DNA of 64,000 nt from positions 7,260 through 71,259 of the forward strand of contig JAFZAL010000007.1 of assembly GCA_017557195.1 (NCBI GenBank), written 5' to 3'. Shown one piece after another: positions 1,598 to 56,300 of the stretch (positions within the stretch are counted from its first letter, which is position 1; the number at the start of each line of letters is the position of its first letter). Position numbers and translations under genes: made by a program. A model generated the notes under the pieces. The model did no database searches, was not told where the DNA came from, and was given only the letters and a program-made list of their open reading frames with translations. The DNA is from Thermoguttaceae bacterium (lineage in GTDB: Bacteria > Planctomycetota > Planctomycetia > Pirellulales > Thermoguttaceae).

Positions 1598-1696
1598 TGG
1601 GTAGTGAGAGAGTGGTTAGTGGTAAGTGGTTAGTAGAAAGTGGTAAGTGAGATGAGCGCTTTGCGTCCTTACCACTTAGCGCTTAAAACTAACCAT
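1598..1696. repeat. 7-mer-arm hairpin element (GGTAAGT / ACTTACC arms)
   Basis: Left arm is ggtagtgagagagtggttagtggtaagtggttagtagaaagtggtaagtgag. Core is agcgctttgcgtcc (1655-1668). Right arm ttaccacttagcgcttaaaactaaccat is complementary to the left arm. Confidence 0.8.
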
Positions 1697-1706
1697 TGAA
1701 ACAAAC

Positions 1707-1779
1707 TATCCGAGGTCGGATTCGAACCGACGACCTTCGGTTTAGGAAACCGGCGCTCTATCCTCTGAGCTACTCAGAC
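1707..1779 (-). tRNA. tRNA-Arg (anticodon CCU)
   Basis: 73-nt cloverleaf on the minus strand. Acceptor GTCTGAG/CTCGGAT (G1-U72 wobble). D arm GCTC-AGAGGATA-GAGC. Anticodon arm CCGGT-TTCCTAA-ACCGA, with U33 and A37 flanking CCT. Variable loop AGGTC. T arm GTCGG-TTCGAAT-CCGAC. Discriminator A; CCA is not encoded. Confidence 0.85.
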
Positions 1780-1851
1780 AACCCGGAATTTTCATTCCTT
1801 AATACGTTTATATTTTTACCACAAACTCCAAAATTAGCAAGGAGGGGAACA

Positions 1852-1927
1852 AGTGCATAGTGCGTAGTGCATAGTGCATAGGGAAAAGAACTACGCACTA
1901 AGCACTAGGTACTAGGCACTAAGCACT
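1852..1927. repeat. 7-mer-arm hairpin element (GTGCATA / TATGCAC arms, no conserved core)
   Basis: Left arm agtgcatagtgcgtagtgcatagtgcatag, loop ggaaaagaa, right arm ctacgcactaagcactaggtactaggcactaagcact (imperfect reverse complement). Confidence 0.8.
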
Positions 1928-1936
1928 CCCTAAAAC

Positions 1937-3214
1937 ATGTATTCACAAAATCGTAATCGCACTGTCGTTATCGGCGGCGGCTTGGCGGGACTTAGCGCGG
2001 CGTGGAATGCGGCGCAAGCCGGTCATGATGTCGTTGTGCTGGAACGGTCGCCGTATCTGGGCGGACGGTGCGGGTCGTTTTACGATTTGCCGTCTCTGCG
2101 TTGGCTGGACAACTGTCCGCACTTATTTTTGGACTGTTGTGACGGCGTGAGGGAGTTCTTTACTCAAACGGGGTTGATCGAGTTCTGGAAGCCGGAACGG
2201 GAATTCTACTTTTATCCGCCGGGCAAACCGGCAACGGCGCCGCGAACGTTTAAAGAATCAGACCGGTTACCGGGCATGCTGCGACTGGAACCCGCCTTGA
2301 GGAGTTTGAACTACCTGTCGTGGAAAGAGCGGTTGAGAATCGTCTTTGATATGCTGGCCATTGCGCGTCAAAAGACGTTTGACGGCTCGTTCGGTCAGTG
2401 GCTCGACAAGCGTAAAACGCCGACGTCCGTTCGGACGCTGTTCTATGAGCCGATTGTGATGAGCGCTCTTTCCTGCTCGCTCGACCGTCCATGTTACAAA
2501 ATGGTTCGGAAAGTTTTCGTCTGCTCTTTCTTTGAGGGACGAAACCGATGGAACTGCTCTCTGCCGACCATTCCGCTTCGGGAACTGTTCGACGTCAAAC
2601 TGGCGGCGGCGTTACAAGATCAGGGGGTGGAAATTCGCCGCGGCTGTACGGTCGAGGAACTGGAGCGAGGCAAAAACCGCATTCGCGCCGTAAGACTGTC
2701 AACCGGCGAACGGATTCTTGCCGAGAAATACGTCCTGGCGACGAACTTCTCAACGGCGCAAACGCTCTTTCCTCCGCTTGCTCCGTTAGCGGAATCGTAT
2801 CAGACGGAATCCATTTCCAGCGTTCATTTCTGGACGGATTCGCCGTTTCTTCCCACGCCGCACGGGGTCTTTCCGGAACGGACGATACAGTGGATTTTCT
2901 CCGGCGAGAAAGACGAGCTGGGATACTATCATTGCGGCGTCGTTTCGGGTACGAACAGCTGGCAGGAACGAAAGAACGGGTTCAAATCCCAGGTTCGTCA
3001 GGAGTTGGCGGAACTCAACCCGGAATCGAAAATCCTGAGATTGGAAACAACGCATTGGAAGGACGCCGTTTGCGTTCCGTCGGTTGAATGGACGAAGGCA
3101 AGACAGAGCTGGTTTGAACAAACGACGCTGCCGGAGAATCTTGAACTCGCCGGCGACTGGACGAATCTTAACTGGCCGTCGACGATGGAAGCGGCGATCG
3201 CAATTAGCAATTAG
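1937..3214 (+). CDS. FAD-dependent oxidoreductase of the amine-oxidase / phytoene-desaturase family (HpnE-like hydroxysqualene dehydroxylase candidate)
   Basis: N-terminal Rossmann dinucleotide motif VVIGGGLAGLSAAWNAAQAGHDVVVLE..LGGR. C-terminal LAGDWT....PSTMEAAI, typical of this family. 425 aa. The subfamily assignment is inference only. Confidence 0.75.
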   Translation: MYSQNRNRTVVIGGGLAGLSAAWNAAQAGHDVVVLERSPYLGGRCGSFYDLPSLRWLDNCPHLFLDCCDGVREFFTQTGLIEFWKPEREFYFYPPGKPATAPRTFKESDRLPGMLRLEPALRSLNYLSWKERLRIVFDMLAIARQKTFDGSFGQWLDKRKTPTSVRTLFYEPIVMSALSCSLDRPCYKMVRKVFVCSFFEGRNRWNCSLPTIPLRELFDVKLAAALQDQGVEIRRGCTVEELERGKNRIRAVRLSTGERILAEKYVLATNFSTAQTLFPPLAPLAESYQTESISSVHFWTDSPFLPTPHGVFPERTIQWIFSGEKDELGYYHCGVVSGTNSWQERKNGFKSQVRQELAELNPESKILRLETTHWKDAVCVPSVEWTKARQSWFEQTTLPENLELAGDWTNLNWPSTMEAAIAISN

Positions 3215-3243
3215 CAATTGTCAATTAGCAATTGACGCAAGAG
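3199..3243. repeat. half element: (CAATTAG)x5 arm plus core-like gacgcaagag
   Basis: Sequence is cgcaattagcaattagcaattgtcaattagcaattgacgcaagag. The TAG stop of the upstream CDS (3212-3214) lies inside the second unit. No right arm is seen. Confidence 0.7.
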
Positions 3244-3252
3244 TTGTTTATA

Positions 3253-3279
3253 TAAAAAAAGCGGGAGTTTTACTCCCGC
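3253..3279 (-). terminator. rho-independent terminator for the minus-strand PEP-CTERM gene (possibly bidirectional)
   Basis: Stem GCGGGAGT (3261-3268), loop ttt, stem ACTCCCGC (3272-3279). On the minus strand the hairpin is followed by a T-run, the complement of aaaaaaa at 3254-3260. It lies 30 nt past the stop of the 3311..6646 gene. Confidence 0.6.
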
Positions 3280-3310
3280 GATATCTTTGTTACGACTTTA
3301 TATCTACTAA

Positions 3311-6300
3311 TTATTTCTTGTTAGCTTTCTTTCGCCAGAACAGCAGCCCGGCGGCGCCGAGAATGAGCAGCGCCCAAGTTGACGGTTCGGGCACGTAATA
3401 AGTTGTTGTCAGATACAGATTGCCGTCTTTGCCCTTTAAGGCGAATTGTCTATGAGTAGAATCGCTTCCGTATCGGTTGGTAAGCAAGTAGCTATAATCC
3501 CCGTTATCTACGTTAGCGCCCTCGATAAGAAGGTACCAGCAATCATCTACCGCCCAAGCGTCTTTATCGCCCTTTAGAAACTCAAGGGCAATGAGACCGC
3601 TATCGCTGGAATCGAACTCAAACGACCCGTTGCTAATATACAATACGTCGTGATAGTTAACGTCCTCTATGTCGCCGGGGAACGTTCCGAACTCAAACAG
3701 CGCGATTCCAGAGTCTTTAATTTGCACGTTCCCGGTAACATAGGCTTTACCGATAAGATCAGCATCCTCAAAGGAGCCGGGGGAGAAAACGCCTTTCTCG
3801 ACTTCCAAAGACGCATCGAGATAACCGGCGTAATCCACCCGACCAGAGGAAATAACGAAGCTCTCAGCTCCCACTAACCCGTCAGCCGCCGCGACAATTT
3901 GCAATGCGCCATCGCCGGTTTTCTCAACAACGCCGTTGCCAAGAACCTGCAGCTTGTCTTCTTCCATCGTTAGCTGTCGCGTTTTCGTTTCCGTATTCAA
4001 TTCGAGCATTGTAGCGTTTTCTGTTTTCTTTTCCAACGTAAATACGCCGGAATAATCTTCTATTTCGTCGAACTGAACGGTCAGCTTGCCGTCGTTGCTG
4101 ATCGTCGTGTCGTTGAAACGAAAATGGTTTGTCGTATCCGCGGTTTCTGTTCCAGGAATGAACTCTCTACCGTAAACGGTAACATTCGCCGCGCTGATTG
4201 ACGTGGAGCCGGCGTAAATGCCGCCATTGAACGTATAAACGCCATCGCCTACAAACGACAATTCATCTTTGCAGTAAATATCGTTCGCTAAAGCTTCACC
4301 TAGCGTCGATTCATCTCCCGTAGCTACATTGTTGAAAAAGTTGGCTTGCGATGGGTCGTCTTGAATAACTGAGCCATCAAAGACGATGCCGCCGCCCGAT
4401 TGGTAAATCGCGCCGCCGTTAATCGCCTTGTTATTTTTAATAGATAAAACGCTATTAGATGTAAAATTAATGTCGCTATTAACGTCGTTGTAAATCGCGC
4501 CGCCCTTGCCGTTTTCGGCGTAATTTCGATTGATTACCAGTTCGTCGATAGCATTAAACGTCAAGTCGTCGATATTTGTCGCGCCAGCGGCGGCAGTTCG
4601 GTAAATAGCCCCGCCGGAACCGGCATTTGCTATGTTGTCTGTAATAGCAAGATTATTCAAGGCGTTAAACGTCGTTGATCCGTCGGATGTGGCAACCTCG
4701 TAAATCGCGCCGCCGCTTTCTCCAGCCACGTTATTTTTAAAGTTAAGGTGCTCTCCTACGATTAAATTCTTTTTTGACTCGAGATAAATCGCGCCGCCAT
4801 TTTGGCTGGCGGTATTACTGCTAAATTCCAGGGAAATGCATTCTAGGTTGAAGTCATAATCAGGCGCAGAGTGGTAAATCGCGCCGCCGCTTATACCAGC
4901 CTCGTTTTGTTGAAAACTCATCGCGCCAAAGGAAACTAAGTCCATCTCGGAGTTAGCGTTATAAACAGCTCCGCCGGAACCGCCCGCCATATTGCGGGAA
5001 ACCGTTACCGTGCCGCTGTCGTGATTTCCATGGATACAAAACAACGGATTATCGTCGGAGGATGAGTTATAAATCGCGGAGGATGCGTTATAAATCGCGC
5101 CGCCGTTGCCGGTAGCGAAATTATTTTCAAAAGTCAATTTTGCATTGGTAGAACCTTCCTCCACGTTCGTAAGAATCTGCAACTTTTTTGCAGTGGAATA
5201 AATCGCTCCGCCGTTGCAACCATCTGCATTCCAGTAAGGCGCTGCTGGATCGTCGCTTGGACGATAACCAGCATAGTTATTACTAATAGTTAAGTTGTTT
5301 GTACCGTCAATTAAGATAGTATTCTCCGCGGCTTGACCGTTGTAATCGCCGCTATAAATGGCGCCGCCGTTGCCGGCAGAGGCGTAATTTCGTTTAATTG
5401 TCATCTCTGCGACAGCTTTAATTTCCGCGTTGGCGCCTTCGTTGTAAATAAACCCTCCGGAACCGGTATTTGCGAGGTTGTCTGTAACGGTAACCTTATT
5501 GGCGTCAAAGGTAATCTTTGCAGGCGCTTCGCCCTGGTTATAAATCACGCCGCCATTGTTACCAGCGGAGTTATTATTAACGTAGATTTCATTATTTGAC
5601 GCTTCTGACGCAATGATGTTTATGCTTCCACTGCCTGCGTTGTAAATCGCCCCGCCAGAACCATTGTTGGCGCTGTTATACGTCAAGCTGACTTTTGTAC
5701 TGGATGTGATGTTAATATTGCCGCTTGAATCGCTATAAATAAAGCCGCCAGAATTTGTGGCAGTGTTCTGATAAATGCGCAGACTGTTGGCGCCTGTTGC
5801 GGTAAGGGAAACGTCGCCTTTGTCGGTAGCGTAAATCACCCCTCCGCTATCCGACGCAGAATTAGAGGAAATATCGAGATTTGCGCTCGTACTGGTAAAA
5901 CCAGACGTATATGCAACGGACCCTCGAACGCCGCGAGTATTATTACTCAAATTTAAAGATGAGTTGACTTGATCGCTAAAGCTAATGTCTACTTTAAGCG
6001 GCTTTCCTTCATCAAAAACATCATCATCATTATCATTCGAGTTTCCAAAACCAAAAGTAGTATTATAAATGTTGAGATAACGTTCTGCGTTTATTTTCAC
6101 CGTCGAATTGCTATTGCTCGAGGATATTACCCCCTTCATATCATGAAATGACGCGCCGTCATTCAAATTAAGGGTAAGGAAATTACTCACGCCGGAATTC
6201 ATATTTAAAAAGACATTGTTGCCGCCGTACCAGCTGCCATAATATCCCACATTAGTTAAGGTTAGAGTCGCGTTGTTCGTTTGATCCACAAACTGAAACG

Positions 6301-6646
6301 CCGGGTTTTTCCCACAGGGGCTTAAGTCAATGTCAACGCTGGCGCCGGAGCCGGATTGAAGTGTAAAATCGGCGCCTCCGGGTATGGTAAACGTTCCATT
6401 TTGTTTCGTTTCGCCTGACATATAATAAACCTTCACATAGTCGCCAACGGCAAGGGAAGGGGAGGATAGCACCACGTTTACACGAGTTCCACTGGCGACT
6501 TGGGTTCCAGCGCTATTGTAACGTACAAATGTGTTTTGAGCATACAGGTTCCCGAGCGAGGCTCCGAATGCAGCCAAAGCGATAACGATTGTTAAAACGC
6601 GAGACGTGTTGAAACGTATGGATCGGAAAGTAGGAATAAAGTTCAT
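3311..6646 (-). CDS. PEP-CTERM-anchored surface protein with polymorphic-membrane-protein (Pmp-type) repeats
   Basis: N-terminal signal peptide (VLTIVIALAAFGASLGNLYAQ). About 15 GG[AFV][IV]Y motifs, each preceded by FxxN-like motifs (e.g. FENNFATGNGGAIYN, FQQNEAGISGGAIYH). C-terminus VPEPSTWALLILGAAGLLFWRKKANKK gives PEP motif, TM helix and basic tail. Confidence 0.85.
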   Translation of the reverse strand: MNFIPTFRSIRFNTSRVLTIVIALAAFGASLGNLYAQNTFVRYNSAGTQVASGTRVNVVLSSPSLAVGDYVKVYYMSGETKQNGTFTIPGGADFTLQSGSGASVDIDLSPCGKNPAFQFVDQTNNATLTLTNVGYYGSWYGGNNVFLNMNSGVSNFLTLNLNDGASFHDMKGVISSSNSNSTVKINAERYLNIYNTTFGFGNSNDNDDDVFDEGKPLKVDISFSDQVNSSLNLSNNTRGVRGSVAYTSGFTSTSANLDISSNSASDSGGVIYATDKGDVSLTATGANSLRIYQNTATNSGGFIYSDSSGNINITSSTKVSLTYNSANNGSGGAIYNAGSGSINIIASEASNNEIYVNNNSAGNNGGVIYNQGEAPAKITFDANKVTVTDNLANTGSGGFIYNEGANAEIKAVAEMTIKRNYASAGNGGAIYSGDYNGQAAENTILIDGTNNLTISNNYAGYRPSDDPAAPYWNADGCNGGAIYSTAKKLQILTNVEEGSTNAKLTFENNFATGNGGAIYNASSAIYNSSSDDNPLFCIHGNHDSGTVTVSRNMAGGSGGAVYNANSEMDLVSFGAMSFQQNEAGISGGAIYHSAPDYDFNLECISLEFSSNTASQNGGAIYLESKKNLIVGEHLNFKNNVAGESGGAIYEVATSDGSTTFNALNNLAITDNIANAGSGGAIYRTAAAGATNIDDLTFNAIDELVINRNYAENGKGGAIYNDVNSDINFTSNSVLSIKNNKAINGGAIYQSGGGIVFDGSVIQDDPSQANFFNNVATGDESTLGEALANDIYCKDELSFVGDGVYTFNGGIYAGSTSISAANVTVYGREFIPGTETADTTNHFRFNDTTISNDGKLTVQFDEIEDYSGVFTLEKKTENATMLELNTETKTRQLTMEEDKLQVLGNGVVEKTGDGALQIVAAADGLVGAESFVISSGRVDYAGYLDASLEVEKGVFSPGSFEDADLIGKAYVTGNVQIKDSGIALFEFGTFPGDIEDVNYHDVLYISNGSFEFDSSDSGLIALEFLKGDKDAWAVDDCWYLLIEGANVDNGDYSYLLTNRYGSDSTHRQFALKGKDGNLYLTTTYYVPEPSTWALLILGAAGLLFWRKKANKK

Positions 6647-7380
6647 AATGTTAATAACCTCTAAAAGTGTAAAAAGGGGTTAGTTAGGAGCGAGAAGTCG
6701 ACGCGCGGCGCCGGTTACGACTAACTGTAACCTCTTTGCTATTCTACAAAATTGCCTCGTTGTCCAATTTGCGAAGAACATAGACCAGGTAACGGCGGAT
6801 TATTACGTAATCTACCGTTGAATTGAAATTTTGCGCAAAGACCGATGGATAAACCAGAGCGATTACGGCAAATACAATTTGTCGAGTAAATGGTTTTATT
6901 CATAGTGTAACGGCTAAAAAGGGTAGGGGTTAACAGTAAACGACTCTAATTGACGTTGTAAACATCGGGGAGGGTAAGGCGATAGCCGCTACTGTGGTTA
7001 TTGGATTGCTCTTCCTGGTGGAACGCGTAAGAAACGTTTACAAAAATCAAAGTCAATTTTTGCTTAGTCGTTTACTTGACTAGTATTATAACTAATAATT
7101 TTAAATTTGAAGCGCCTGTTTCAAAAAATTTTTAAAAAAATTTCCCCCATTTTATTAAAAAGGTAGTAATTATACAGGCAACGCCGAATTGAGACCGCAG
7201 AAAACGACTTTTCTTCAACCCAACTCTGACTTTATAGCGTTCTTCCCGATTTTTTTCTTTTTCTCAACTTTTATTAAATACGTGGTCAGTTTGAAACGAT
7301 AATACCAATGATAACGATTAGGTAAAATCGGTATTTATGAATATATTTGTAAAGTAAAAATTGACAAAATAGGCGTTGTC

Positions 7381-30654: not shown

Positions 30655-30800
<146 letters not shown>

Positions 30801-30919
30801 CCATTTTTCTTGTAAATTTGTCGAACAATTCATTGACAAAGCAGAAAGAATCTGTTATAATAATATATAAGGGCTAATAAATTCGAATATTTCGTCCAGA
30901 TAATCAAAAAACTATTTCA

Positions 30920-46170: not shown

Positions 46171-46378
46171 TAGGCAGTAGGCAGTAGAGAATGCGTAATT
46201 AGTAATGCATAATTATGCAAGCTCTGCTCGTAATTCTTCTCGCAACTCGCAACTATTCTCCAGCCTGCCCATTCATTTTTAAAACTTTGCGAACTTTGCG
46301 TGAGACTTTTTTTAATTCCGAATTCCGCATTAACAATTACGCATTACGAATTACAAATTACGCATTACGCATATAACC
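46167..46378. repeat. compound element with four unit families (GCAGTAG, GCGTAAT, GCAACTC, ATTACGC/ATTCCGC)
   Basis: Runs gtagtaggcagtaggcagtag, then aatgcgtaattagtaatgcataatt, core-like atgcaagctctgc, then ctcgcaactcgcaact. Continues with ctttgcgaactttgcg and ends aattccgaattccgcattaacaattacgcattacgaattacaaattacgcattacgc. Confidence 0.75.
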
Positions 46379-48152: not shown

Positions 48153-48210
48153 TTGGATTTAGGGATGAGGCTGCTAATTCCGCAGACGCAGCTCTATTCC
48201 CTATTTTCTA
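48153..48210. repeat. degenerate 7-mer-arm hairpin element (AGGGAAT family)
   Basis: Left part ttggatttagggatgagg. Central hairpin gctgc-taattccgcagac-gcagc. Right part tctattccctattttcta. Confidence 0.55.
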
Positions 48211-48343: not shown

Positions 48344-49240
48344 ATGTCAGAAGTAAAGTCGAGTATACACGTATCGGTTATGCCCGATGAGGTGTTGGAA
48401 TATATCAATCCTCAGCCGGGTCAGGTCGTCGTTGACGGCACGCTGGGCGGGGCGGGGCACGCGAAAATGATCGCGTCCCGGCTGGTTCCCGGCGGCTGTC
48501 TGATTGGCTTGGATCGAGACGCTGCGCCATTACAGCTGGCGGAAGAAACGCTCAAGGGACTGCCGGTTATTCTGGCGCAGTCCAACTTTTGCGATCTGCC
48601 TGAAACGCTGGAAGAAATCGATGGAATCGATAAAGTCGACGCGATTTTGCTTGACCTGGGACTGTCGAGCGACCAGTTGGCAGACCGTTCCCGCGGGTTC
48701 AGCTTTAATTCCGACGGTCCGCTGGACTTGCGCTTTGACGTCGATCATGGCGAGCCTGCGTGGAAACTGCTCAACCGGCTGTCCCAGCAGACGCTGGCAG
48801 ACCTGATTTATCAGTACGGCGAGGAACGTTTCAGCCGTCGAATCGCTCAAAAGATTGTCGAAACCAGACGTTCCAATCCGATTAAAACCGCCGCTCAACT
48901 GGCGGAACTGGTTCGTTCCTGCGTTCCGGTCGAACGCAACAGAAAAAACGCCATTGATCCCGCAACGCGAACGTTTCAGGCGCTTCGCATTGCCGTCAAT
49001 GATGAATTGAAGTCGTTGGAAATCGCGCTCAAACGGTTTCCAGACGTCCTTAAACCGGGGGGAATCCTGGCGATTATCAGCTTTCATTCCCTGGAAGACC
49101 GACGCGTTAAAGAGGCGTTTCGCAATGACGATCGCTACGAAGTTTTAACGCCCAAAGCCTTGACAGCGTCCCCGGAAGAAATTGAAGTCAATCCGCGCAG
49201 CCGATCCGCAAAACTGCGAGTCGCAAGAAGAAATGCGTAA
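48344..49240 (+). CDS. rsmH: 16S rRNA (cytosine1402-N4)-methyltransferase
   Basis: Motifs HVSVMPDEVLEYINPQPGQVVVDGTLGGAGHA, DLGLSSDQL, ALRIAVNDEL, ISFHSLEDRRVK and ARSAKLRVARR are all characteristic of RsmH/MraW. I prefer the ATG at 48344 over the upstream TTG. Confidence 0.93.
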   Translation: MSEVKSSIHVSVMPDEVLEYINPQPGQVVVDGTLGGAGHAKMIASRLVPGGCLIGLDRDAAPLQLAEETLKGLPVILAQSNFCDLPETLEEIDGIDKVDAILLDLGLSSDQLADRSRGFSFNSDGPLDLRFDVDHGEPAWKLLNRLSQQTLADLIYQYGEERFSRRIAQKIVETRRSNPIKTAAQLAELVRSCVPVERNRKNAIDPATRTFQALRIAVNDELKSLEIALKRFPDVLKPGGILAIISFHSLEDRRVKEAFRNDDRYEVLTPKALTASPEEIEVNPRSRSAKLRVARRNA

Positions 49241-49385
49241 TTCGTAATGCGTAATTCGTAATTACGCTTCGCGTTCATCGTAGTTTTATTGTGACGCTTG
49301 CGTCAATTCCGCATTCAAATTCCGCATTACAAATTTTTGAGGCGCTTTGCGTCAATTACGCATTACGCATTAAACATTACGAATT
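49233..49385. repeat. dimeric 7-mer-arm element (GCGTAAT / ATTACGC and ATTCCGC arms, two cores)
   Basis: Left arm atgcgtaattcgtaatgcgtaattcgtaatt contains the rsmH TAA (49238-49240). Cores CGCTTGCGT (49295-49303) and cgctttgcgt (49343-49352). Arms caattccgcattcaaattccgcattac and aattacgcattacgcattaaacattacgaatt. Confidence 0.85.
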
Positions 49386-49393
49386 AAAGTACC

Positions 49394-52300
49394 ATGAGCC
49401 GAAGAAATCGCAATAATCGATACAATTCTCGCAACCGAAACAAGTGGGATGAAGGTTACGACGACGAGTACTTTGACGATGACGATCAGCTGGAGTCTGA
49501 AGACGACGATTCTTCAGAGGATCAGGACGAGTACGAAGACGAAGAGTACGAAGAGTACGATTCCGAGGAGGAAGACGACGAGTCGGACGATGAACAGTAC
49601 GAAGACGAAGAGTACGACGAGGACGACGAAGAGGAGTATGACGAAGACGAGTCTGAGGACGAGGAAGAATACGACGAGGACGACGAAGAAGAGTATGATG
49701 AAGACGAGTCTGACGAGGAAGAGGTAGACGAAGAAGACGAAGAGGAAGAAGAGGAATCCGATGACGACGAAGACGACGAATTAGACAGCGAAATCGAAGC
49801 GGCGGCGGAATCGACGGCAAAGAAAACTATTGGGAATTCCGATCTGCTGAGCAAGCTTCGCGGTCAGATGCGTCCGCAGCTTAAAGAGGATTCGTCCGAG
49901 TCAAATAAAGACGTCGAAATTAACGTCTCGCCGCTGTCGCTGTTTGGTCAGCCGATTTCTCAAAACAATAAAAAGAGCAATACGTCCAGCGCTATGCCTC
50001 AGCACGCCAATGCGAGAATTGTTCAAACTGCAACAGTTGGTTCCAAACAGCCGCAGTCCGCGCCAAGCGCGTCTGTTCAGAAGTCTGGCAGCGGTCGGGT
50101 TATTACTGCTCAGTCTCAAAATGGGGCAAGCGTTACCTCTGTTCAGCCTCGAGATTTAGAAGCGGAAAAAGCGGAAGCGGATAAAAAGCAAAAAGAAAAG
50201 GAGCGTCTGGAACAGGAACAAAAGACGAAAGAAGAAAAAAGCGCTCGCATCCTCGATAAATTTAAACGAAAGAAGTCCTCTGGCGAATCCGCTGTGAGTA
50301 AAACCAAAGCGGGCGCTTCCTGGGTATGGTCAAAAATGTCGTCTGGCGCCGCCTGGATTGGGGCGGGAATTGCCGCCTGCTTTGTCTGGATGTTTTGGTC
50401 TAAACCCAAGCAGGCGTGGCAAACATGGCGAATTTTCAACGCTTCCTGGTGGTCTGGACTTGGCTCTGGCGCCTGGAACGCCGTTAAGAAACCGTTTGTC
50501 AAAAAGCCCGTCGAGACCGCTCAAACGGAAGGCGCGGAAGCTGTTCCGTCCGGGTCCGCTGATGCGTCTGTCAGCGCTGTAACATCAGAACCGGCAACCG
50601 TCAGAAAGAGGAAATCCCGAAAGAAGAATGTGGATATTTGGGACGCCGACGCGACTCCTGGCGCCGAAGCTGGAACGGACGCTTTTGCCAGCAAGGAACC
50701 GGATAGCCGCAGAAGACTCTATTTCTCTTTGAGTTCAATTGGCGCCGCGGCAATTATGTTCCTGCTGGTTCTTCCTTCAATGCTTAATGGAAGCAAAAAG
50801 AGCGATGAAAACGCAGTCGCCCTTAACGGTCAGGAAACCGTTTCTGACGTTACAAATCAGGATGTAAACAAACCGGTTTCTGAAACTGTCCCGGCGTCTG
50901 AGAACGGATTGGAGAATAACAATCAGGGAATTGTAAACAACAACGAAACGTCTCGCGTACGCGCGTTTAATTCGCCTAACGGCGACGTTCAGACAGGGTA
51001 TCCCGCTGGTAGAACGCCTTCGACCAATGGGAACAATTTCAATTCGCCTCGCGGAGACTCCCGAATGGGGTATCAAGCTGGCGGCGCTCCTTCGACCAAC
51101 GGGAACAATTTTAACTCGCCTCGCGGAGACTCGCGGACGGGATATCCAGCAGGAAACGCGCCTATGACCAACGGGAACAATTTCAATTCGCCTCGCGGAG
51201 ATTCGCGGACGGGATATCCAGCAGGAAACGCGCCTTCGAATTACAACGCGACTTCCTATGACCCGCGCTCAACTCGCCAATCGCCGACGGCGCCGCTTGA
51301 GATTGACGCTCCGGAAGTAACAACTCCTGAAATTGCGGCTCCTGAAGTTTCAGATTTGGGTTTGGACGCTCCCGAACTTCCCTCGCCGGAAGCGACGGCT
51401 CCTGAAGTAACGGACTTGGGCTTGGACGATTCCGAACCTTCCGTTCCTGAATTAACGACTCCGGAAGTTACGGATTTAGGTTTGGACGATATGGAACTGC
51501 CCGCCCCGGAAGATACCGCCTCGGAAGTTACAGCTCCGGAAGTTACGGATTTGGGTTTGGACGATTCCTTGCCGACTCCGGAACTTCCGAGCGACGATGA
51601 GGTCCCTGTTCCAGACCTGTCCGATTCGGAATTGGAAGCTCCGGCTGTTGATATAGAAGTTCCGGAAATTCCCGATGAAACGACGCAGGCAGGCGAAGAT
51701 CCGTTGAATGACGCAGCGCCTGAAGTCCCGGACTTGGACAATTCGGAAGTAACAGCTCCCGAAGAAACGGATATTGCGCCGACGCCGGATTTGACGTCGT
51801 CCGTTGAACCGTCCAGCGACGCTGATTTACCAACGCCTGAAACCGACGTTCCGGAGTTGTCTATGCCTGAATTGTCTGATCCTCAACCAGTTGATTCCAA
51901 TCTGGAAGAAACGCCGACAGTTCCAGAGCCGGATGCGTTGGAAACGGGAATTGCGTCCCAGCTGACAGAGCCTGAGCCAATTCCTGAAACGCCGTTGACT
52001 CCGGAAGAGAGTTTGCCAAACGACTCGCAGCTTGCCGCATCTCCAACGGAAACGTCTCCCGCGGATTCGTCCGTAGAGTTGGGAGCGCCTGGGCCTTTGG
52101 TTTCCTCAGCAAACGAAAACGCCGCTGACGTTCAGACGCAGACGGCTGCCAACGTCAGTCCGAGCGCTGTAAATAATGAGCCTTTGACGAACTCTGGCTA
52201 CGGGACGAGCGAATACAACAACAGTTATGCGAACAATTACAACAACGTCCCGGAATACAGTCCGACGTATGTCAACACCGGCTCGTATACGGTTCAGCCT

Positions 52301-52696
52301 AATGACAGCTTCTGGACGATTGCCAAGCGCGTATACGGCAGCGGAGAATACGCCAGAGCGCTGGCGCAGTATAACAGTTCTCTCGTCAGTCCGCAGTCGC
52401 TGACAGTGTCAGTTCAAATCAAGACGCCGCCAGTGGAAACGTTGGAACGGCAGTTCCCGGGATTGTGCCCCTCTCGCGGTTTGGCGTCTTCTGCGGCGTC
52501 GACAGCGAACGCGGCTCCGGCGGGAACTCGCGTGTATATTGTTGACCAGGAAGAAAGCGTGATGGAAATCGCCCGCCGCGAGTTGGGAAGCATCCTGTAC
52601 TGTTCTCAGGTTTACGCTCTTAACCAGGAACAGCTTTCCGGCAGCGTTGACCGCGTTAAACCCGGCGTTCGACTGCTGCTGCCCGTTCAAAAATAA
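49394..52696 (+). CDS. giant membrane-associated protein: hyper-acidic N-terminus, TM segments, repeat-rich region and two C-terminal LysM domains
   Basis: 1100 aa. About 115 residues are almost only D/E/Y/S. TM-like segments (AAWIGAGIAACFVWMFW, IGAAAIMFLLVLPSML). Four 24-aa repeats and PEVTDLGLDD-type repeats. LysM-like YTVQPNDSFWTIAKRVYGSGEYARALAQYN and VYIVDQEESVMEIARRELG...VKPGVRLLLP. Confidence 0.7.
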   Translation: MSRRNRNNRYNSRNRNKWDEGYDDEYFDDDDQLESEDDDSSEDQDEYEDEEYEEYDSEEEDDESDDEQYEDEEYDEDDEEEYDEDESEDEEEYDEDDEEEYDEDESDEEEVDEEDEEEEEESDDDEDDELDSEIEAAAESTAKKTIGNSDLLSKLRGQMRPQLKEDSSESNKDVEINVSPLSLFGQPISQNNKKSNTSSAMPQHANARIVQTATVGSKQPQSAPSASVQKSGSGRVITAQSQNGASVTSVQPRDLEAEKAEADKKQKEKERLEQEQKTKEEKSARILDKFKRKKSSGESAVSKTKAGASWVWSKMSSGAAWIGAGIAACFVWMFWSKPKQAWQTWRIFNASWWSGLGSGAWNAVKKPFVKKPVETAQTEGAEAVPSGSADASVSAVTSEPATVRKRKSRKKNVDIWDADATPGAEAGTDAFASKEPDSRRRLYFSLSSIGAAAIMFLLVLPSMLNGSKKSDENAVALNGQETVSDVTNQDVNKPVSETVPASENGLENNNQGIVNNNETSRVRAFNSPNGDVQTGYPAGRTPSTNGNNFNSPRGDSRMGYQAGGAPSTNGNNFNSPRGDSRTGYPAGNAPMTNGNNFNSPRGDSRTGYPAGNAPSNYNATSYDPRSTRQSPTAPLEIDAPEVTTPEIAAPEVSDLGLDAPELPSPEATAPEVTDLGLDDSEPSVPELTTPEVTDLGLDDMELPAPEDTASEVTAPEVTDLGLDDSLPTPELPSDDEVPVPDLSDSELEAPAVDIEVPEIPDETTQAGEDPLNDAAPEVPDLDNSEVTAPEETDIAPTPDLTSSVEPSSDADLPTPETDVPELSMPELSDPQPVDSNLEETPTVPEPDALETGIASQLTEPEPIPETPLTPEESLPNDSQLAASPTETSPADSSVELGAPGPLVSSANENAADVQTQTAANVSPSAVNNEPLTNSGYGTSEYNNSYANNYNNVPEYSPTYVNTGSYTVQPNDSFWTIAKRVYGSGEYARALAQYNSSLVSPQSLTVSVQIKTPPVETLERQFPGLCPSRGLASSAASTANAAPAGTRVYIVDQEESVMEIARRELGSILYCSQVYALNQEQLSGSVDRVKPGVRLLLPVQK
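50966..51240 (+). repeat. in-frame 72-nt tandem repeat, about 4 copies (FNSPRGDSRTGYPAGNAP.TNGNN)
   Basis: Units start at 50966, 51038, 51110 and 51182. Units 2-4 contain an RGD tripeptide; unit 1 has NGD. Confidence 0.9.
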
Positions 52697-52774: not shown

Positions 52775-54877
52775 GTGAGTAAAAAAGTATTTAATCCATA
52801 TCGGGATTTGCTCGATATTCCATCGTTGAAAGACGAAAATCCGTCAGATTATCAGCTTCTGGGAATCGAAGATTTCGAGAGCGACTCGGGAAAGATTGCC
52901 GCCGCTCATGAAAAACGTTCGCAGCGAATAGCGGATTTGTATCAGCTTATTACGAGAATGTCTCAGCAGATAGACGAAGCCCGCGATCGCATTTCCGATT
53001 CTCAGAAAAAAGAAGAATACGACAATCTTTTAAGAAAAACCGGCCGCGCCGGCGTGGCTCATCTTGGAAAAGGCGGCTCGTTTGCCCTGCTGTTTTCTTT
53101 TGTTTTGAGTATTTTTATTGTAGTGGTTTCGACGTTCTACATCTATCCGATGGTTGTTCCAACTCCGCCGGAGAACTATGGCGATTCCGTTACAACTCTG
53201 CCGGAATATAAAGAATCCCAAACCCAAAAGGAAATCGACATCCTTAAAGTTCAGCAGGAAGACATTTCAACCATGGACGTCAATTTCAACCTCCCGATTG
53301 ACGTTGACGCCGATTCTTCAGTAGATCTCCTTGACGTTCCAGCTGCAGACATTCCTGGCGAAGAAACGTCCATTGACGACCTGTCTGTTACAGACATCCC
53401 ATTGAATGACGACGCGCAGGCGGCTGAACAGCCCGCTGAACTGGAAGTTCCCGATATTGAAGAACCCGCGCCAGAACAACCAGCGGTAGAAGAACCCGCG
53501 GCAGAGGAACCAGCGGCAGAGGAACCAGCAGAACCAGAAGTTCCGGCTTTGGAAGCTCCTGCGATAGAAGAACCTGCGGTTGAAGAGCCTGCAGTCGAGG
53601 AACCTGCCGCGCCGGAAGAACCGTCTTTACCTGAAACGCCGGCAGTTGATCAACCAACTGAGCCTGAAGAACCCGTTGATGAACAGCCTCAGACGCCGGA
53701 AGTTCCAGACGTTCCCGAGGTCGAGCAGTCTGAAGTCGAATCTCCTGCGGAGCCTGAAGAACAAACCATCGAAAGACCTTCTGAAGAATCGCCGGAGGTT
53801 CTTGTTGATCCTGAAATTCCGGACGCGCCCTCGCTTCCTGGCGTTCCCGACAGGGTCGGTTCCCAAGTGGACGTGGGGAGCGCCGAAACCGGCTCTTTCG
53901 GAGGCATAACCTCGTCCACTCGCCCGCGCGGTTTCGCGCCCGATTCTGACACGCCGACTGTTCCGAAGTTGTCAGATAGAGATAACGCCGGGATTCCAGA
54001 ACTGCCGCCGCTAGAGGAAGTTGCGGATTCTGGTCCTCCCGAAGCGCCTCAACCGCCGGTTATTCCAGAGTTGGCGTCTGTTGATGAACCGGTTGTAACG
54101 CATGATGGAGGGCGGGTATTACCCGCCGAAAAGTTGCGAGAAGCGAGTAACGAGTGGCGAGAAAACGCAAGCGTTACACAAAATCCTCTCGCAACTCGCA
54201 ACTCGCAACTCGCAACTCGCCCGTACGGCGTTGTACTGGAAGACGTTGACAAAGTTGATAAGCTGGATCAGTTTGTTCAGATGGGGCAGAAAGCTCGCAC
54301 TGACGAGGATTTTGCTCAGTTGCTCGTTTCCGCTCGGCAGGCGGAAGAAGAATTGATGAAAGAAAAACAGTTCCCAAAAGCGCAGCAAATTGCTGACGTT
54401 GTTTACGCTGCTTGCGCTCGTTTGGCTGACAAATCGTATCGCGCCGAGGCGTATCAGCACAAAGAAATCGTTTCTCGGCGGGCTGCATGGTGGGACGCCG
54501 CCCGCGCGGCTGAAGCAAAAATGCAGTCAAACGGAAGCGTTACTCCTGCTGAGGCGAATATTGTCGCCCGATGGAAAATTGAAGTAGAAAACGATTGGGA
54601 AACCGGGCTCAAATACCTGGCTTTTAGCGATAACGAACAGATTCAGCTCGCGGTGAAAAGAGATCTCGCCGCCAATCCGGAGAACGTTCGTCATTGTCTG
54701 GTTGTTGCGAATGACTGGTGGAATCTCTCTCAAGATCCGGTTCCGATGCAAAAACAGTATAGACAACGCGCCAGCATGTGGTATTCCAAAGCTCTGCCGT
54801 CAATTGCGGACAAACAGATTCGAACTCTCGTAGAAAAACGAATCTCGATAGTGGATCAGGGCTATCCAAAACACTGA
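52775..54877 (+). CDS. membrane-anchored protein with N-terminal J-like domain lacking HPD, acidic Pro/Glu/Ala linker and helical C-terminal domain; carries a complete repeat element in frame
   Basis: GTG start with aagga 7 nt upstream. N-terminus NPYRDLLDIP...SDYQLLGIEDFESDSGKIAAAHEKRSQ. TM segment FALLFSFVLSIFIVVVSTFYIY. EEPA(V/A)EEPA repeats. Same architecture as the 24126 gene. Confidence 0.68.
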   Translation: MSKKVFNPYRDLLDIPSLKDENPSDYQLLGIEDFESDSGKIAAAHEKRSQRIADLYQLITRMSQQIDEARDRISDSQKKEEYDNLLRKTGRAGVAHLGKGGSFALLFSFVLSIFIVVVSTFYIYPMVVPTPPENYGDSVTTLPEYKESQTQKEIDILKVQQEDISTMDVNFNLPIDVDADSSVDLLDVPAADIPGEETSIDDLSVTDIPLNDDAQAAEQPAELEVPDIEEPAPEQPAVEEPAAEEPAAEEPAEPEVPALEAPAIEEPAVEEPAVEEPAAPEEPSLPETPAVDQPTEPEEPVDEQPQTPEVPDVPEVEQSEVESPAEPEEQTIERPSEESPEVLVDPEIPDAPSLPGVPDRVGSQVDVGSAETGSFGGITSSTRPRGFAPDSDTPTVPKLSDRDNAGIPELPPLEEVADSGPPEAPQPPVIPELASVDEPVVTHDGGRVLPAEKLREASNEWRENASVTQNPLATRNSQLATRPYGVVLEDVDKVDKLDQFVQMGQKARTDEDFAQLLVSARQAEEELMKEKQFPKAQQIADVVYAACARLADKSYRAEAYQHKEIVSRRAAWWDAARAAEAKMQSNGSVTPAEANIVARWKIEVENDWETGLKYLAFSDNEQIQLAVKRDLAANPENVRHCLVVANDWWNLSQDPVPMQKQYRQRASMWYSKALPSIADKQIRTLVEKRISIVDQGYPKH
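54110..54220. repeat. complete composite element (GC hairpin, GAGTTGC arm, exact core, (GCAACTC)x4 arm) embedded in frame in a CDS
   Basis: GC hairpin gggcgggtattacccgcc (54110-54127) is identical to 17448-17465. Left arm agttgcgagaagcgagtaacgagtggcgag. Core ACGCAAGCG at 54165-54173. Right arm ctctcgcaactcgcaactcgcaactcgcaactcgc. Translated as GRVLPAEKLREASNEWRENASVTQNPLATRNSQLATR. Confidence 0.85.
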
Positions 54878-54885
54878 GAATCAAG

Positions 54886-54977
54886 GTGAGAAGTGCGTAG
54901 TGCATAGTGCATAGTGCATAGTTCATAGTGAGGGGAGCGCTTGCGTCCTAAATACTATGCACTAAGTACTAACTACT
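54886..54977. repeat. 7-mer-arm hairpin element (GTGCATA / TATGCAC arms)
   Basis: Left arm gtgagaagtgcgtagtgcatagtgcatagtgcatagttcatagtg. Core CGCTTGCGT at 54938-54946. Right arm actatgcactaagtactaactact. Confidence 0.85.
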
Positions 54978-55012
54978 ATTTTGCGTATTTCGTGTTAAAA
55001 TAACTTTTTATC

Positions 55013-56077
55013 ATGCAAAACATTGTTCTTTGTTATCCTGTAAATGAAGCTCAAATAGAGCAAATCACTCAAGCCGCCGGACCGGAATACAATATAATTT
55101 CAGTTGGTCAGAAAGAAATCAAAGAAGCGATTTTCGACGCGGATATTTTCTGCGGACACGGAAAGCTGACCGGCGCGGCTGGCATCGATTGGGATGCGGT
55201 TGTCGAAAAAGGGCGTCTTCAGTGGATTCAGTCGTCTGCGGCGGGCATGGACCATTGCCTCGTTCCCGCTACGATTAATTCCTCTATTCACGTAACCAGC
55301 GCGTCAGGCGTTTTGTCTGATCAGGTTGCGGAACATACAATCGCGCTGTTGACCGGGTGGATGAGACGTCTTAAAACGTTTGTTCTGGCGGAATCAACCC
55401 GAGATTTTACGCGCCGTCCGACCTGGGATTTGACGTATCGAACCGTTCTCATCGTTGGATTGGGCGGGGTAGGGCGGCGCCTGTCGGAACTGCTGCGCCC
55501 GTTCCGCGGCAAGATCATGGCGGTTGATCTCTTCCCGGACAAAGTCCTTCCGCCAACGGTTGACGAACTCTATCCGGCAGACGAACTCGACGCTGTTTTG
55601 CCCAAGGCGGACGTCGTTGTTACATGTTTGCCGTTGAATCAGTTTACTCGCAAGACGTTTAACGCAGAACGATTTTCCAAGTTCAAAAAGGGCGCGCTGT
55701 TTGCCAACATGGCGCGAGGCGCTTTGGTTGACCACGACGCCATGGTTGCCGCGCTGGATTCTCAGCAGCTTATCGGCGCTGTTATGGACGTTACCGACCC
55801 GGAACCGCTTCCGCCGGAAAGCCCGTTGTGGGAACGTCCGAACGTGTTAATAACGCCGCACGTTGCCGGACAAAGCCGCTGGAGAATCGAGAATATGACG
55901 TATATGTTCTGCGAGAATCTTCGTCGCTGGAAAGCGGGCGAGCCGCTGGTAAACTATCTGACCAGAAAAGAACTCGGGTTCCCCATGCGAGGAACCGGAC
56001 ACCCGCTCTGGTCGGAAATCGCTCAGGACATCGTCCCGAAACAGCGCGGCGAAATGGGCGTCGAGACATTTTATTGA
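55013..56077 (+). CDS. NAD-dependent D-isomer-specific 2-hydroxyacid dehydrogenase family protein
   Basis: NAD-binding VLIVGLGGVGRRLSELL. Catalytic-region pattern ANMARGALVD...D.EPLP..SPLW...NVLITPHVAG. Confidence 0.88.
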   Translation: MQNIVLCYPVNEAQIEQITQAAGPEYNIISVGQKEIKEAIFDADIFCGHGKLTGAAGIDWDAVVEKGRLQWIQSSAAGMDHCLVPATINSSIHVTSASGVLSDQVAEHTIALLTGWMRRLKTFVLAESTRDFTRRPTWDLTYRTVLIVGLGGVGRRLSELLRPFRGKIMAVDLFPDKVLPPTVDELYPADELDAVLPKADVVVTCLPLNQFTRKTFNAERFSKFKKGALFANMARGALVDHDAMVAALDSQQLIGAVMDVTDPEPLPPESPLWERPNVLITPHVAGQSRWRIENMTYMFCENLRRWKAGEPLVNYLTRKELGFPMRGTGHPLWSEIAQDIVPKQRGEMGVETFY

Positions 56078-56084
56078 TAAACGC

Positions 56085-56300
56085 ATCTTTTTAAACACGA
56101 AAAACACGAAGCGCATAGTGCATAGTGCATAGTGCATAGTGCATAGTGCATAGTGCATAGTGCATAGTGCATAGTGCATAGTGCATAGTGCATAGTGTAT
56201 AGTGTATAGTGCATAGTGCATAGTGCATAGGACGCAAGCGCTCATCTCACTAAGCGCTAACCACTTACCACTAACCACTTACCACTATTTCGTGTTAAAA
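56085..56300. repeat. chimeric element with a 17-unit GTGCATA microsatellite as left arm, exact core, and ACTTACC-family right arm
   Basis: Starts aaacacgaaaaacacgaa. About 17 units of (GTGCATA) span 56111-56230, two of them GTGTATA. Core ACGCAAGCG at 56232-56240. Right arm ctcactaagcgctaaccacttaccactaaccacttaccact. Ends tatttcgtgttaaaa. Confidence 0.9.

Follow-up and report, generated by a model that had tools for sequence, protein, structure and literature searches.

The stretch of DNA analyzed here (the window: 64 kb from Thermoguttaceae, phylum Planctomycetota, an uncultured lineage from the ruminant gut) carries many elements built from two inverted arrays of tandem heptanucleotides placed around a short centre, so that either strand can form a long hairpin with about one mismatch per 7 bp. 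[quoted passage not shown] Whole elements have been copied to unrelated loci. They are tolerated between the stop codon of one gene and the conserved leader of the following one, in convergent gaps, in some of the divergent regions and in the disordered linkers of proteins.

Hairpin repeats of the window

A preliminary description of the window listed 17 such sites, and the sequences found at all 17 are as it describes them. The 9-mer at the centre, ACGCAAGCG, matches on the two strands at exactly the seven positions reported there (compared with 1.22 +/- 0.98 matches in dinucleotide shuffles, none of 100 of which reached seven), and the one-base-longer variant ACGCAAAGCG was found at each of its five positions (1657, 30695, 35069, 40590 and 49343). 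Under a stringent rule the window holds 22 tandem arrays of period 7; the same rule returned 0, 0, 1, 6, 0, 0 and 2 arrays for periods of 5, 6, 8, 9, 10, 11 and 12, respectively, and Tandem Repeats Finder reported about 45 arrays of period 7. When the sites were folded together with 100 dinucleotide shuffles, 12 of the 17 gave z scores of -3 or below on the plus strand, the best being 45293-45379 (z -8.4); the chimeric or one-armed sites at 30655, 40587 and 46167 folded weakly (z about -2). A search of the window at Rfam gathering thresholds returned tRNA-Arg only, with no element reaching any family.

The idea that all sites share one centre held for about 10 of the 17, which have a ACGCAAGCG-type centre, but not for the rest: 1852 is coreless, 26340 is centred on AATTCGCC-TTCG-GGCGAATT, 17410 has a different, composite centre, 29217 has arms of 9-mers, 48153 is a separate hairpin conserved across species, and 30655, 40587 and 46167 are chimeric or one-armed. 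The core had also been drawn too short; copies aligned on the 9-mer give the asymmetric sequence GGACGCAA(A)GCGCTCNNCTCAC. We distinguish at least three types of centre. Type A is this 21-22 nt core, whose predicted mini-hairpin is weak, and type B is the shorter ACGCAAAGCGCCTCA, which occurs with AATGCGG, GAGTTGC or GGCAGTA arms. The third type, absent from the preliminary description, is (A)ATTCGCC-TNCG-GGCGAAT(T), a mini-hairpin of 7-8 bp with a C(UNCG)G cap, which in RNA is a tetraloop of exceptional stability. By inspection of sequence contexts, the loop is T-N-C-G in all of about 15 loci lying within heptamer arms, and all four bases occur at N (TTCG 8, TGCG 3, TACG 2-3 and TCCG 1-2). 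The 8-mer CGCAAGCG, of which one strand gives C(GCAA)G and the opposite strand G(CUUG)C, would also be of tetraloop type.

The elements of the window are listed below (strand is given where one was assigned; MFE is minimum free energy, and ORF is open reading frame).

1598-1696: type A, GTGGTWA left arm and TTACCAC-type right arm; MFE -32.7, z -4.1; 7 nt past the stop at 1591, adjoining tRNA-Arg.
1647-1668, minus strand: the 22-nt core GGACGCAAAGCGCTCATCTCAC of the 1598-1696 element.
1852-1927: coreless hairpin, AGTGCAT x4 against GCACT-type x6 around the centre AGGGAAAAGAAC, with about one mismatch per 7 bp; z -6.7.
3198-3243, plus strand: GCAATTA array and degenerate core ACGCAAGAG (3235-3243), an addition to the earlier list; a stem-loop with a flanking A-run lies 3' of it at about 3261-3279.
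11927-12010, minus strand: UNCG type, GGGAATA-type arm, centre GAATTCGTC-TTCG-GCGAATC, degenerate CTCGCAA arm; inside the real gene 10620-13004, in-frame translation KTGNREQGVGNSDSPKTNSTPLATRKSQ, in a hypervariable linker.
12785-12906, plus strand: composite of GGCAGTA-type units, core ACGCAAGCG (12819-12827), a module of about 60 nt (ACCAACGGGAGCGAATTTCGGCAGACGCGCGGTAGCGCGG...) and CTCGCAA x2.4; inside gene 10620-13004 and translated in frame; no hairpin signal (z +0.5).
13006-13085, plus strand: type A, GTGCNTA x4, core GGACGCAAGCGATTCTCTCAC (13036-13056), TATGCAC-type arm; MFE -41.8, z -7.0; begins 2 nt past the stop at 13004.
17410-17546: composite, outer TAGGCAA/CCTACTG arms with three small hairpins within (GGGGGGCGGGTATTACCCGCC..CGCGGACAATGTCCGC); z -7.2; constitutes the entire gap from one convergent stop (17409) to the other (17546); its centre is also found in locus L026.
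26338-26428, plus strand: UNCG type, TAGGGAA-type arm, centre AATTCGCC-TTCG-GGCGAATT (26372-26390), CTACTCC arm; MFE -49.0, z -8.3; begins at the TAG stop of gene 24126-26342 and ends 7 nt short of the next start.
26955-27053: chimeric, GAGTTGC x2 (left) and CCTACTG x3.4 (right) separated by an unrelated GC hairpin; z -2.2; falls in ORF 26435-28621 as called mechanically, but may precede the true start of that ORF.
27524-27553, plus strand: solo CTCGCAA x4.3 array, in frame in a mechanically called PMT_2-like membrane-protein ORF.
29217-29346: 9-mer-armed hairpin, AAACACGAA / TTTCGTGTT; z -5.0 on the plus and -6.5 on the minus strand; also holds an unpaired CTACTGC x4 that abuts the stop of gene 29345-30532 (minus strand).
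30652-30800, plus strand: chimeric with a type B core, AATGCGG x5, TTACGCAAAGCGCCTCA (ACGCAAAGCG at 30695-30704), CTATTCC x5 and CTACTGC x6; right arrays not complementary to the left, no hairpin (z -1.9); in the intergenic region between divergent genes.
33395-33473, plus strand: type-A-like, AGTGGTA x4.3, variant core GGATGCAAGCGCTGCCCCTAC, TAACCAC-type arm; z -3.9; in a convergent gap.
35037-35115, plus strand: GAGTTGC class with a type B core, AAACGCAAAGCGCCTCA (ACGCAAAGCG at 35069-35078), CTCGCAA x3.4; z -5.7; a paralogue of the 45293 and 54132 elements.
39322-39412, minus strand: GTGGTAA-class hairpin, degenerate core GGACGTCAAGCGTTCATCATAC; MFE -43.7, z -8.1.
40587-40632, minus strand: one-armed fragment, core TTACGCAAAGCGCTC (40590-40599) and an AATTACG array, with no complementary arm; z -1.9.
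45293-45379, plus strand: GAGTTGC class, core AAAACGCAAGCGTCC (ACGCAAGCG at 45327-45335), CTCGCAA arm; MFE -48.2, z -8.4; 2 nt past the ScpA stop and unchanged in 98%-identical strains.
46165-46378: mosaic of at least four classes (GGCAGTA, AATGCGT/AGTAATG, CTCGCAA and ATTACGC), degenerate core ATGCAAGCTC; z -2.2; begins at the TAG stop of gene 45481-46170.
48153-48210, plus strand: short hairpin, TAGGGAT ... TATTCCC around GCTGC..GCAGC; z -3.0.
49230-49388, minus strand: three-core cluster (cores at 49265-49274, 49295-49303 and 49343-49352) with AATGCGT/AATTCGT/AATTCCG arrays; z -3.8; overlaps the rsmH stop (49240) and stops 6 nt short of the start codon at 49394.
54132-54220, plus strand: complete GAGTTGC-class element, core 54165-54173; MFE -41.0, z -6.5; in gene 52775-54877.
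54884-54978, minus strand: type A, GTGCATA arm, core GGACGCAAGCGCTCCCCTCAC (54928-54948), TATGCAC/TAAGTAC arm; z -3.2.
56085-56300, plus strand: nested, outer AAACACGAA/TTTCGTGTT, GCATAGT x16.9 on the left, core GGACGCAAGCGCTCATCTCAC (56230-56250), right arm TAAGCGC/TAACCAC/TTACCAC; MFE -81.5, z -5.1.

The hairpin at 48153-48210, unlike the other elements, is near base-for-base the same in two other species (L047 and L048; junction J5); it is therefore probably a separate stable feature and not a typical member of the family, and may be a regulatory or terminator hairpin downstream of the SpoIIE-like gene. The lone tRNA gene of the window, tRNA-Arg(CCT) at 1706-1780 on the minus strand, has a hairpin element on either side (1598-1696 and 1852-1927).

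Stems are 14-120 nt long and consist of tandem heptamers of several unrelated classes, with conserved sequence confined to the centres. The unit vocabulary is biased: AGT/ACT occurs in 81 of 119 array consensus units (22% expected), and TAG/CTA in 83 of the 119. Among neighbouring pairs of arrays, 20 have the G-rich array ahead of the C-rich one and a single pair has the reverse order, a polarity that is valid on both strands because the arms are inverted repeats. In 62 of 103 arrays every frame of the G-rich strand contains a stop codon; the C-rich strand has no stop codon in 70 of them. Further modules (a unit of about 95 nt and a three-hairpin unit) lie inside or beside arrays, and the overall build is a mosaic, much like that of BIMEs.

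The dispersed module of about 95 nt (GACAGGGTCGGTTCCCAAnTGGAnGnGGGnAnCGCCGAAAnCnGCTnTTTCGGAGnCAnAACCTnGTCCnCTCGCCCG, beginning GACAGGGTCGGTTCCCAA) lies at 53849-53945, inside gene 52775-54877, where its in-frame translation is 'DRVGSQVDVGSAETGSFGGITSSTRPRG'; it occurs twice in the orthologue P0122 and also at loci L019, L026, L036, L049 (three copies), L061, L065 and L085, often joined to CTCGCAA arms. The three-hairpin module, GGGGGGCGGGTATTACCCGCC-AAAAAAATCAACCTTTGATT-CGCGGACAATGTCCGC, occupies 17440-17510 and recurs in another species (L026, about 3225-3300), and its first hairpin stands alone, in frame, at 54108-54127 in gene 52775-54877. A module of about 60 nt, ACCAACGGGAGCGAATTTCGGCAGACGCGCGGTAGCGCGGATGGGGAGCGGCGCCTCGCCGC (translated 'TNGSEFRQTRGSADGERRLAAS'), directly follows the ACGCAAGCG core at 12828-12889; its reverse complement lies at L048 2484-2560 (junction J3), it is also found in P0158, the orthologue of gene 10620-13004, and its place and orientation differ between related genomes.

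Distribution in the host lineage

The gene content of the window is typical of Planctomycetota (DUF1559 proteins with an N-terminal methylation motif, PEP-CTERM and very large secreted proteins). Homologues of its ScpA from named sources are from metagenome-assembled genomes (MAGs) of Thermoguttaceae, Pirellulales or Planctomycetia, one window protein is a 100% match to NCBI 'MAG: hypothetical protein IKX40_00505 [Thermoguttaceae bacterium]', and several gut-type metagenome assemblies hold contigs that are identical or 98% identical to the window. A cyanobacterial affiliation, which the heptamers suggest, is rejected on account of the Thermoguttaceae protein and genome matches and of the count of HIP1 (GCGATCGC), which is not enriched in the window (2 occurrences compared with 3.8 expected).

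The core recurs beyond the window. Across a genome collection searched with one genome per species, the pattern GGACGCAA(A)GCGCTCNNCTCAC occurred at 33 loci, 24 of which belong to six MAG species of Thermoguttaceae sampled from the rumen, the goat gut and comparable sources. Heptamer arrays flank all but two marginal copies among these 24 (L019 and L044), with a G-rich (purine-rich) array on the 5' side (AGTGCAT, AGTGCTT, AGTGGTA and others) and its complement on the 3' side (TATGCAC, TTACCAC and others); the remaining nine matches, in other phyla, are without arms and are such as chance would produce. Metagenome matches to the core have arms in 34 of 41 cases, some forming tandem clusters. 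Viral contigs contained no match, and a viral origin of the elements was rejected on this basis. Of the 54 matches to ACGCAA(A)GCG in some 310 kb of Thermoguttaceae DNA, at least 44 lie within period-7 flanks, and arrays of period 7 number 74 in 179 kb of related loci versus 0 in 67 kb of unrelated loci. Three ScpA relatives (L009, L012 and L013; 60-88% protein identity; 35 kb), which are not syntenic and were used purely as negative density controls, have no arrays; the genome of L013 does carry elements at other places. L009 (73% identity, from another metagenome; 11.7 kb without heptamer arrays) carries at 1-6950 a complete CRISPR-Cas operon (Cas3, Cas6, DevT/DevR-like, Cas5, a Cas4-Cas1 fusion and Cas2) upstream of a sodium:solute symporter gene and scpA.

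Arm pairing and strand asymmetry

The stem had been described as maintained by covariation, and this is borne out at the level of unit class but not below it. The mean duplex energy of an element's own arms is -25.8 kcal/mol, compared with -18.4 when arms are paired with those of other copies (permutation p < 1e-4); arms of different classes give -13.0 and same-class arms of other copies -27.2. Own arms thus pair no better than same-class arms, and fine compensatory covariation within a class is rejected. In 29 type-A copies, 78.9% of cells are paired compared with 15-44% for slid structures, and the covariation score (0.131 versus 0.088) lies above all 500 shuffles, owing mostly to the GTGCNTA and GTGGTWA classes.

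Type-A stems usually have a mismatch at every seventh pair, and their arms are asymmetric about the core, the left being diverse (GTACTTA, GTGCTTA, GCGCTTA) and the right mostly TATGCAC. On the core-sense strand, A.C-type mismatches outnumber G.T-type mismatches by 105 to 53 (p = 4e-5), and this strand is the mRNA strand 25 times versus 11. The identification of a structured RNA strand from the asymmetry of G.U and A.C was dropped, because it points opposite to the commoner mRNA-sense strand; the mismatch asymmetry may reflect descent from an asymmetric master copy. The type-A asymmetry also gives T.T mismatches on the core-sense strand, and in the 56085-56300 element it is reversed, consistent with a flip of the core alone.

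Dispersal and turnover

The copying of whole elements is visible within single genomes, in which copies share 60-70 nt, including the order of their unit variants, between flanks that are unrelated (loci L014, L029 and L025 of RUG11551; sites 35037, 45293 and 54132 of the window). These paralogous copies bear on the proposal that the arrays are purely local microsatellites, each generated by slippage in place with no dispersal. In many bacteria no other long simple repeats are as over-represented as heptamers, which has been ascribed to slippage (Mrazek 2007, as relayed in PMC4679880), one array has 17 units on one arm only, and gradients of unit variants run through single arrays. A non-repetitive 21-nt core that recurs at dozens of loci and a shared order of variants between unrelated flanks are, however, difficult to obtain in this way, and neither the G-rich-5' polarity (20 versus 1) nor the matching of arms is expected from independent slippage; we hold a purely local origin to be very improbable.

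Comparison of five syntenic genomes (the window, L047, L048, L049 and L038) revealed that presence, class, centre and orientation differ at orthologous junctions. The heptamer-free junctions J7, J10 and J11 are well conserved; at J3, J4, J6, J8 and J9 the arm class, centre type, length or orientation differs, or there is no element. Junction J6, for example, measures 19 nt in L047, 38 nt in L048 and 153-175 nt elsewhere (175 nt in L049). At J9 (56085-56300) the core of the window lies on the plus strand behind 17 left units, whereas in L038 and L049 it is inverted and the units number about five; the flanking right arm is shared. Either the core was inverted between the arms, or another copy took the place of the element. 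A clean pair of empty and filled sites, in which target-site duplications might show, was sought at J6 and in the ORF linker; both places look like replacements, so that no insertion signature could be read. Between strains that are 98% identical there are 145 differences in 7.4 kb, three of which fall in about 600 nt of intergenic DNA.

We considered whether the elements are of the REP/REPIN type, moved by a REP-associated tyrosine transposase (RAYT; an IS200/IS605-like Y1 transposase) that recognizes the centre hairpin on single-stranded DNA. Their high copy number, mostly extragenic location, hairpin formation and alternating or tandem clusters agree with such a system, the small conserved centre can fold as a mini-hairpin, and several unit types contain GTAG, with GTAG-tagged REPs having been reported in the PVC superphylum (PMC3733652). 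The arms, however, are variable tandem heptamers around at least three unrelated types of centre, there is no conserved palindrome of 20-40 bp with a fixed 5' tag, and a search for a RAYT gene, or any Y1 or HUH gene, in the 64-kb window and the annotated syntenic loci found none. Paralogous copies end in degenerate heptamers, with no shared terminal inverted repeat (TIR) and no visible target-site duplication, and no related insertion sequence was found. Mobilization by a RAYT strikes us as unlikely.

Two independent short-read assemblies (L006 and L007) have contigs that end at window position 45323, in the left-arm and core part of element 45293-45379, which indicates that the repeats break assemblies; they probably contribute to the fragmentation of MAGs in the Thermoguttaceae lineage.

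Position relative to genes and in-frame copies

Array density is about 37-fold higher in intergenic DNA than in mechanically called ORFs, and by type of gap the arrays number 58 in co-directional, 17 in convergent and 17 in divergent regions. Among the window elements that follow a gene, 15 of 16 lie within 10 nt of its stop codon, and the elements at 26340, 46168 and 49240 themselves supply the TAG stop; elements typically extend to a short conserved leader ahead of the next start codon. Two positional statements of the preliminary description were too broad. Elements were called intergenic throughout, but those at 11927-12010, 12785-12906, 27524-27553 and 54132-54220 lie inside long ORFs, and the second and fourth of these hold the 12819 and 54165 core matches. 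They were also said to occupy nearly every gene junction, whereas a stringent array is present at 13 of 35 mechanically called junctions, or about 18 after curation; about half of the junctions in the window are occupied.

Orthologue alignments establish that genes 10620-13004 and 52775-54877, both of which contain elements in frame, are real. The 54132-54220 element is read in frame (KLREASNEWRENASVTQNPLATRNSQLATRP) in a Pro/Glu-rich linker of gene 52775-54877, and at this spot orthologues share the element, have native sequence instead or have a different element (in L048 a GGGAATA hairpin of UNCG type; in L049 the 95-nt module together with GGCAGTA/CTCGCAA arms). Gene 10620-13004 has translated elements in two hypervariable linkers, and the heptamer-coded peptides GNREQGVGNS, PLATRNSQLAT and NRQETV recur and vary among its orthologues. 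Stop-free frames are kept where elements sit in protein linkers.

Because seven is not divisible by three, a unit gained or lost could shift reading frames or promoter spacing and so switch genes, as at contingency (phase-variation) loci; arrays in the glycosyltransferase-like ORF at 27524 and in the linkers of putative envelope proteins would suit such a function. No difference in unit number is seen, however, between strains at 98-99.98% identity, most arrays are downstream of stop codons, and the copies within ORFs sit in disordered linkers and remain in frame across species, so that we give this explanation almost no credence.

Some gene calls are artifacts made by the repeats themselves: the GTG start at 13029 lies within the 13006-13085 element, and the 102-residue ORF 30562-30870 consists largely of heptamer arrays and is a product of mechanical calling. 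The gene at 49394-52696 encodes a protein of 1100 residues (1128-1173 in orthologues) with a long acidic, D/E/Y-rich low-complexity region (49499-49753), a weak LysM domain and tandem coding repeats of 72 nt and 60 nt (51015-51490).

Proposed explanation

In the explanation that we favour, that of a mosaic interspersed family, arrays would lengthen and shorten by replication slippage, and template switching or recombination in the inverted repeat would preserve the likeness of the two arms, the same arm-to-arm process being able to flip the centre; dispersal would require some copying activity. The hairpins would then act in RNA, as stable 3'-end or intercistronic stem-loops that follow three-frame stops and are not canonical terminators. 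Such a putative role at the RNA level, which is the one proposed for REP elements and cyanobacterial STRR hairpins, is plausible, and the UNCG loops and modest biases of orientation (UNCG strand mRNA-sense about 9 times versus 3, core-sense strand 25 versus 11) speak for it.

Several observations weigh against parts of this account. None of the differences between the 98%-identical strains falls within the three elements covered, so that slippage must be slow or the arrays constrained. Neither a mobilizing gene (in the 64-kb window or the annotated syntenic loci) nor clear element termini were found; without these, or duplications, the term 'mobile' rests on paralogous copies and on presence or absence between species only. 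The sample of the lineage is about 400 kb, and most of the related loci in it were chosen for carrying the type-A core. As to a role in RNA, arrays also occur in divergent regions (17 arrays), chimeric copies do not fold, the excess of A.C over G.T mismatches is on the core-sense strand, and between 44000 and 62000 no heptamer element is terminator-like and none has a U-tract, whereas classical stem-plus-T-run terminators score at 57254-57288, 59999-60040 and 61395-61417.

In a neighbouring interpretation, which we regard as possible but doubtful, the hairpins exist mainly as RNA elements selected by the host (stabilizers in 3' untranslated or intercistronic regions, attenuators, unconventional terminators, or bidirectional 'stop and insulate' signals) and their repetitiveness is a by-product of how easily such hairpins arise. 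The C(UNCG)G loop, a motif of RNA-specific stability, is kept while N takes all four bases, its strand is mRNA-sense about nine times versus three, and the core-sense strand also tends to be that of the mRNA. Elements abut and sometimes supply stop codons, 62 of 103 arrays have a stop in each of the three frames of the 5' arm, three elements are free of substitutions between strains that are 98% identical, and the same role has been proposed for STRR hairpins (PMC2670836). However, one junction may carry any class in either orientation, or nothing at all, across species (the 19-nt J6 of L047 being an example), elements also lie in divergent regions and inside ORFs, U-tracts are lacking although classical terminators stand nearby, the excess of A.C mismatches falls on the strand that is more often mRNA, and several chimeric copies do not fold.

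Significance

The repeats make up a large share of the non-coding DNA in an uncultured lineage of gut planctomycetes, and knowledge of the family helps to explain fragmented MAGs and mis-called gene ends and starts (such as the 13029 start and ORF 30562-30870). Modules that are translated in frame in the disordered linkers of real proteins, and that vary from one species to another, make the family a visible source of new protein sequence. The origin, spread and function of bacterial heptamer repeats of the STRR type have been a standing question since 1990. Lacking from the classical heptamer cases, or not reported for them, are the tetraloop-signature centres, the strict polarity of the arms, the opposite orientation of centres at orthologous sites and the existence of close relatives that are free of arrays in the DNA sampled; these features make comparative searches for enzymes and tests at the RNA level feasible, and the in-frame copies provide another handle on the nature of bacterial heptamer repeats.

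Comparison with known systems

Among the cyanobacterial repeats, reportedly described by Mazel et al. in 1990, STRR1 (CCCCAGT) and STRR3 (CAACAGT) contain AGT, the trinucleotide favoured here. The preliminary description took the modular build to be one without a recognized counterpart, but precedents exist in STRR hairpins (PMC2670836) and in the inverted heptamer arrays of Xanthomonas (PMC4692102). The former are intergenic hairpins of 7-bp tandem repeats in filamentous cyanobacteria (for example, hupS-hupL in Anabaena, Nostoc and Lyngbya) that lie between co-transcribed genes and for which a role in transcript stability or translational coupling has been proposed (PMC2670836). The Thermoguttaceae elements share with them tandem 7-bp units of many types, a mostly intergenic location and inverted arrays that yield hairpins; they differ in phylum and in unit sequence (neither the named STRR sequences nor a cyanobacterial host is involved), and STRRs are not defined by a core, whereas here there are conserved centres (the ACGCAAGCG core or the UNCG mini-hairpin) and a strict G-rich-5' polarity. 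Also close in architecture are the small dispersed repeats (SDR1-8) of Nostoc punctiforme, reportedly described by Elhai et al. in 2008 as modules of 21-27 nt, often embedded in tandem heptamer repeats, that nest and combine, with shared secondary structure and mobility inferred and no known enzyme. The likeness, a conserved module of about 21 nt inside heptamer arrays at dozens of loci, is one of architecture only; the host phylum differs and the sequences are probably unrelated. An insertion of SDR5 in HIP1 is mentioned in PMC4390886.

The Xanthomonas arrays, of GGGAATC (GGGGAYT in Nostoc), have 2-26 units, are 89-93% intergenic and lie on average 28 nt past the upstream ORF, with 70-75 convergent inverted pairs capable of forming stem-loops and with length and sequence that vary between related species (Rehm et al. 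2015, PMC4692102). Inverted heptamer pairs after ORFs and a GGGAATA class are found here too; but a single G4-prone unit dominates in Xanthomonas, whereas here there are many classes, most of them not G4-capable, and no conserved centre module is reported there. Direct TAACTGA heptamers of marine Beggiatoaceae, some Cyanobacteria and Bacteroidetes (MacGregor 2015, PMC4679880) resemble our arrays in being intergenic, in giving stops in three forward frames, in being translated in some ORFs and in having AGT in the reverse complement (TCAGTTA); they differ in consisting of a single unit with no hairpin or core, in nearly all cases repeated directly just upstream of start codons (one case is inverted).

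The likening to REP/BIME sequences or to miniature transposable elements with inverted repeats (MITEs) stands in part. REP, BIME and REPIN sequences are conserved imperfect palindromes with a GTAG/CGTC tag, linked to RAYTs (PMC3116915, PMC2817692, PMC3733652). The present elements are likewise short hairpins at gene ends, interspersed in high copy number, mostly extragenic, arranged in mosaic clusters and dispersed non-autonomously as paralogous copies with turnover at junctions, and the role proposed for REPs is the stabilization of mRNA. They have no single tagged palindrome of 20-40 bp, and GTAG occurs inside some units but not as a fixed terminal tag; unlike MITEs, they have neither TIRs nor target-site duplications, and no transposase was seen in the window. 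Nor do the heptamer elements between 44000 and 62000 score as intrinsic terminators, which have a short, GC-rich stem with a small loop ahead of a U-tract. Rickettsia palindromic elements are hairpin repeats of about 100-150 bp of unique sequence that lie in frame in genes and are translated; in-frame translation is thus a common feature, but they lack heptamer arrays and belong to another host.

We found no description of such elements for Planctomycetota or Thermoguttaceae in the literature, and the family is probably undescribed for this lineage. A more speculative proposition, to which we attach a small probability, is that TAG/AGT-anchored, G-rich-5' heptamer arrays would be the product of one widely distributed and unrecognized mechanism. 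A common pattern is suggested by the Thermoguttaceae arrays and the convergent GGGAATC pairs of Xanthomonas, and by the related heptamer arrays of cyanobacteria (STRR and SDR repeats) and Beggiatoaceae (TAACTGA). The mechanism could be a hairpin-directed copy-and-paste or templated repeat-adding activity whose mobile seeds would be small modules with tetraloop caps (GCAA/CUUG or UNCG). Its products at gene ends would be insulators that act in both directions, each a hairpin plus stops in three frames, and the disordered linkers of proteins could acquire new stretches of peptide through it. Irrespective of that proposition, the kind of element is one known from cyanobacteria and Xanthomonas, of which the Thermoguttaceae repeats are a lineage-specific version and not a new class.

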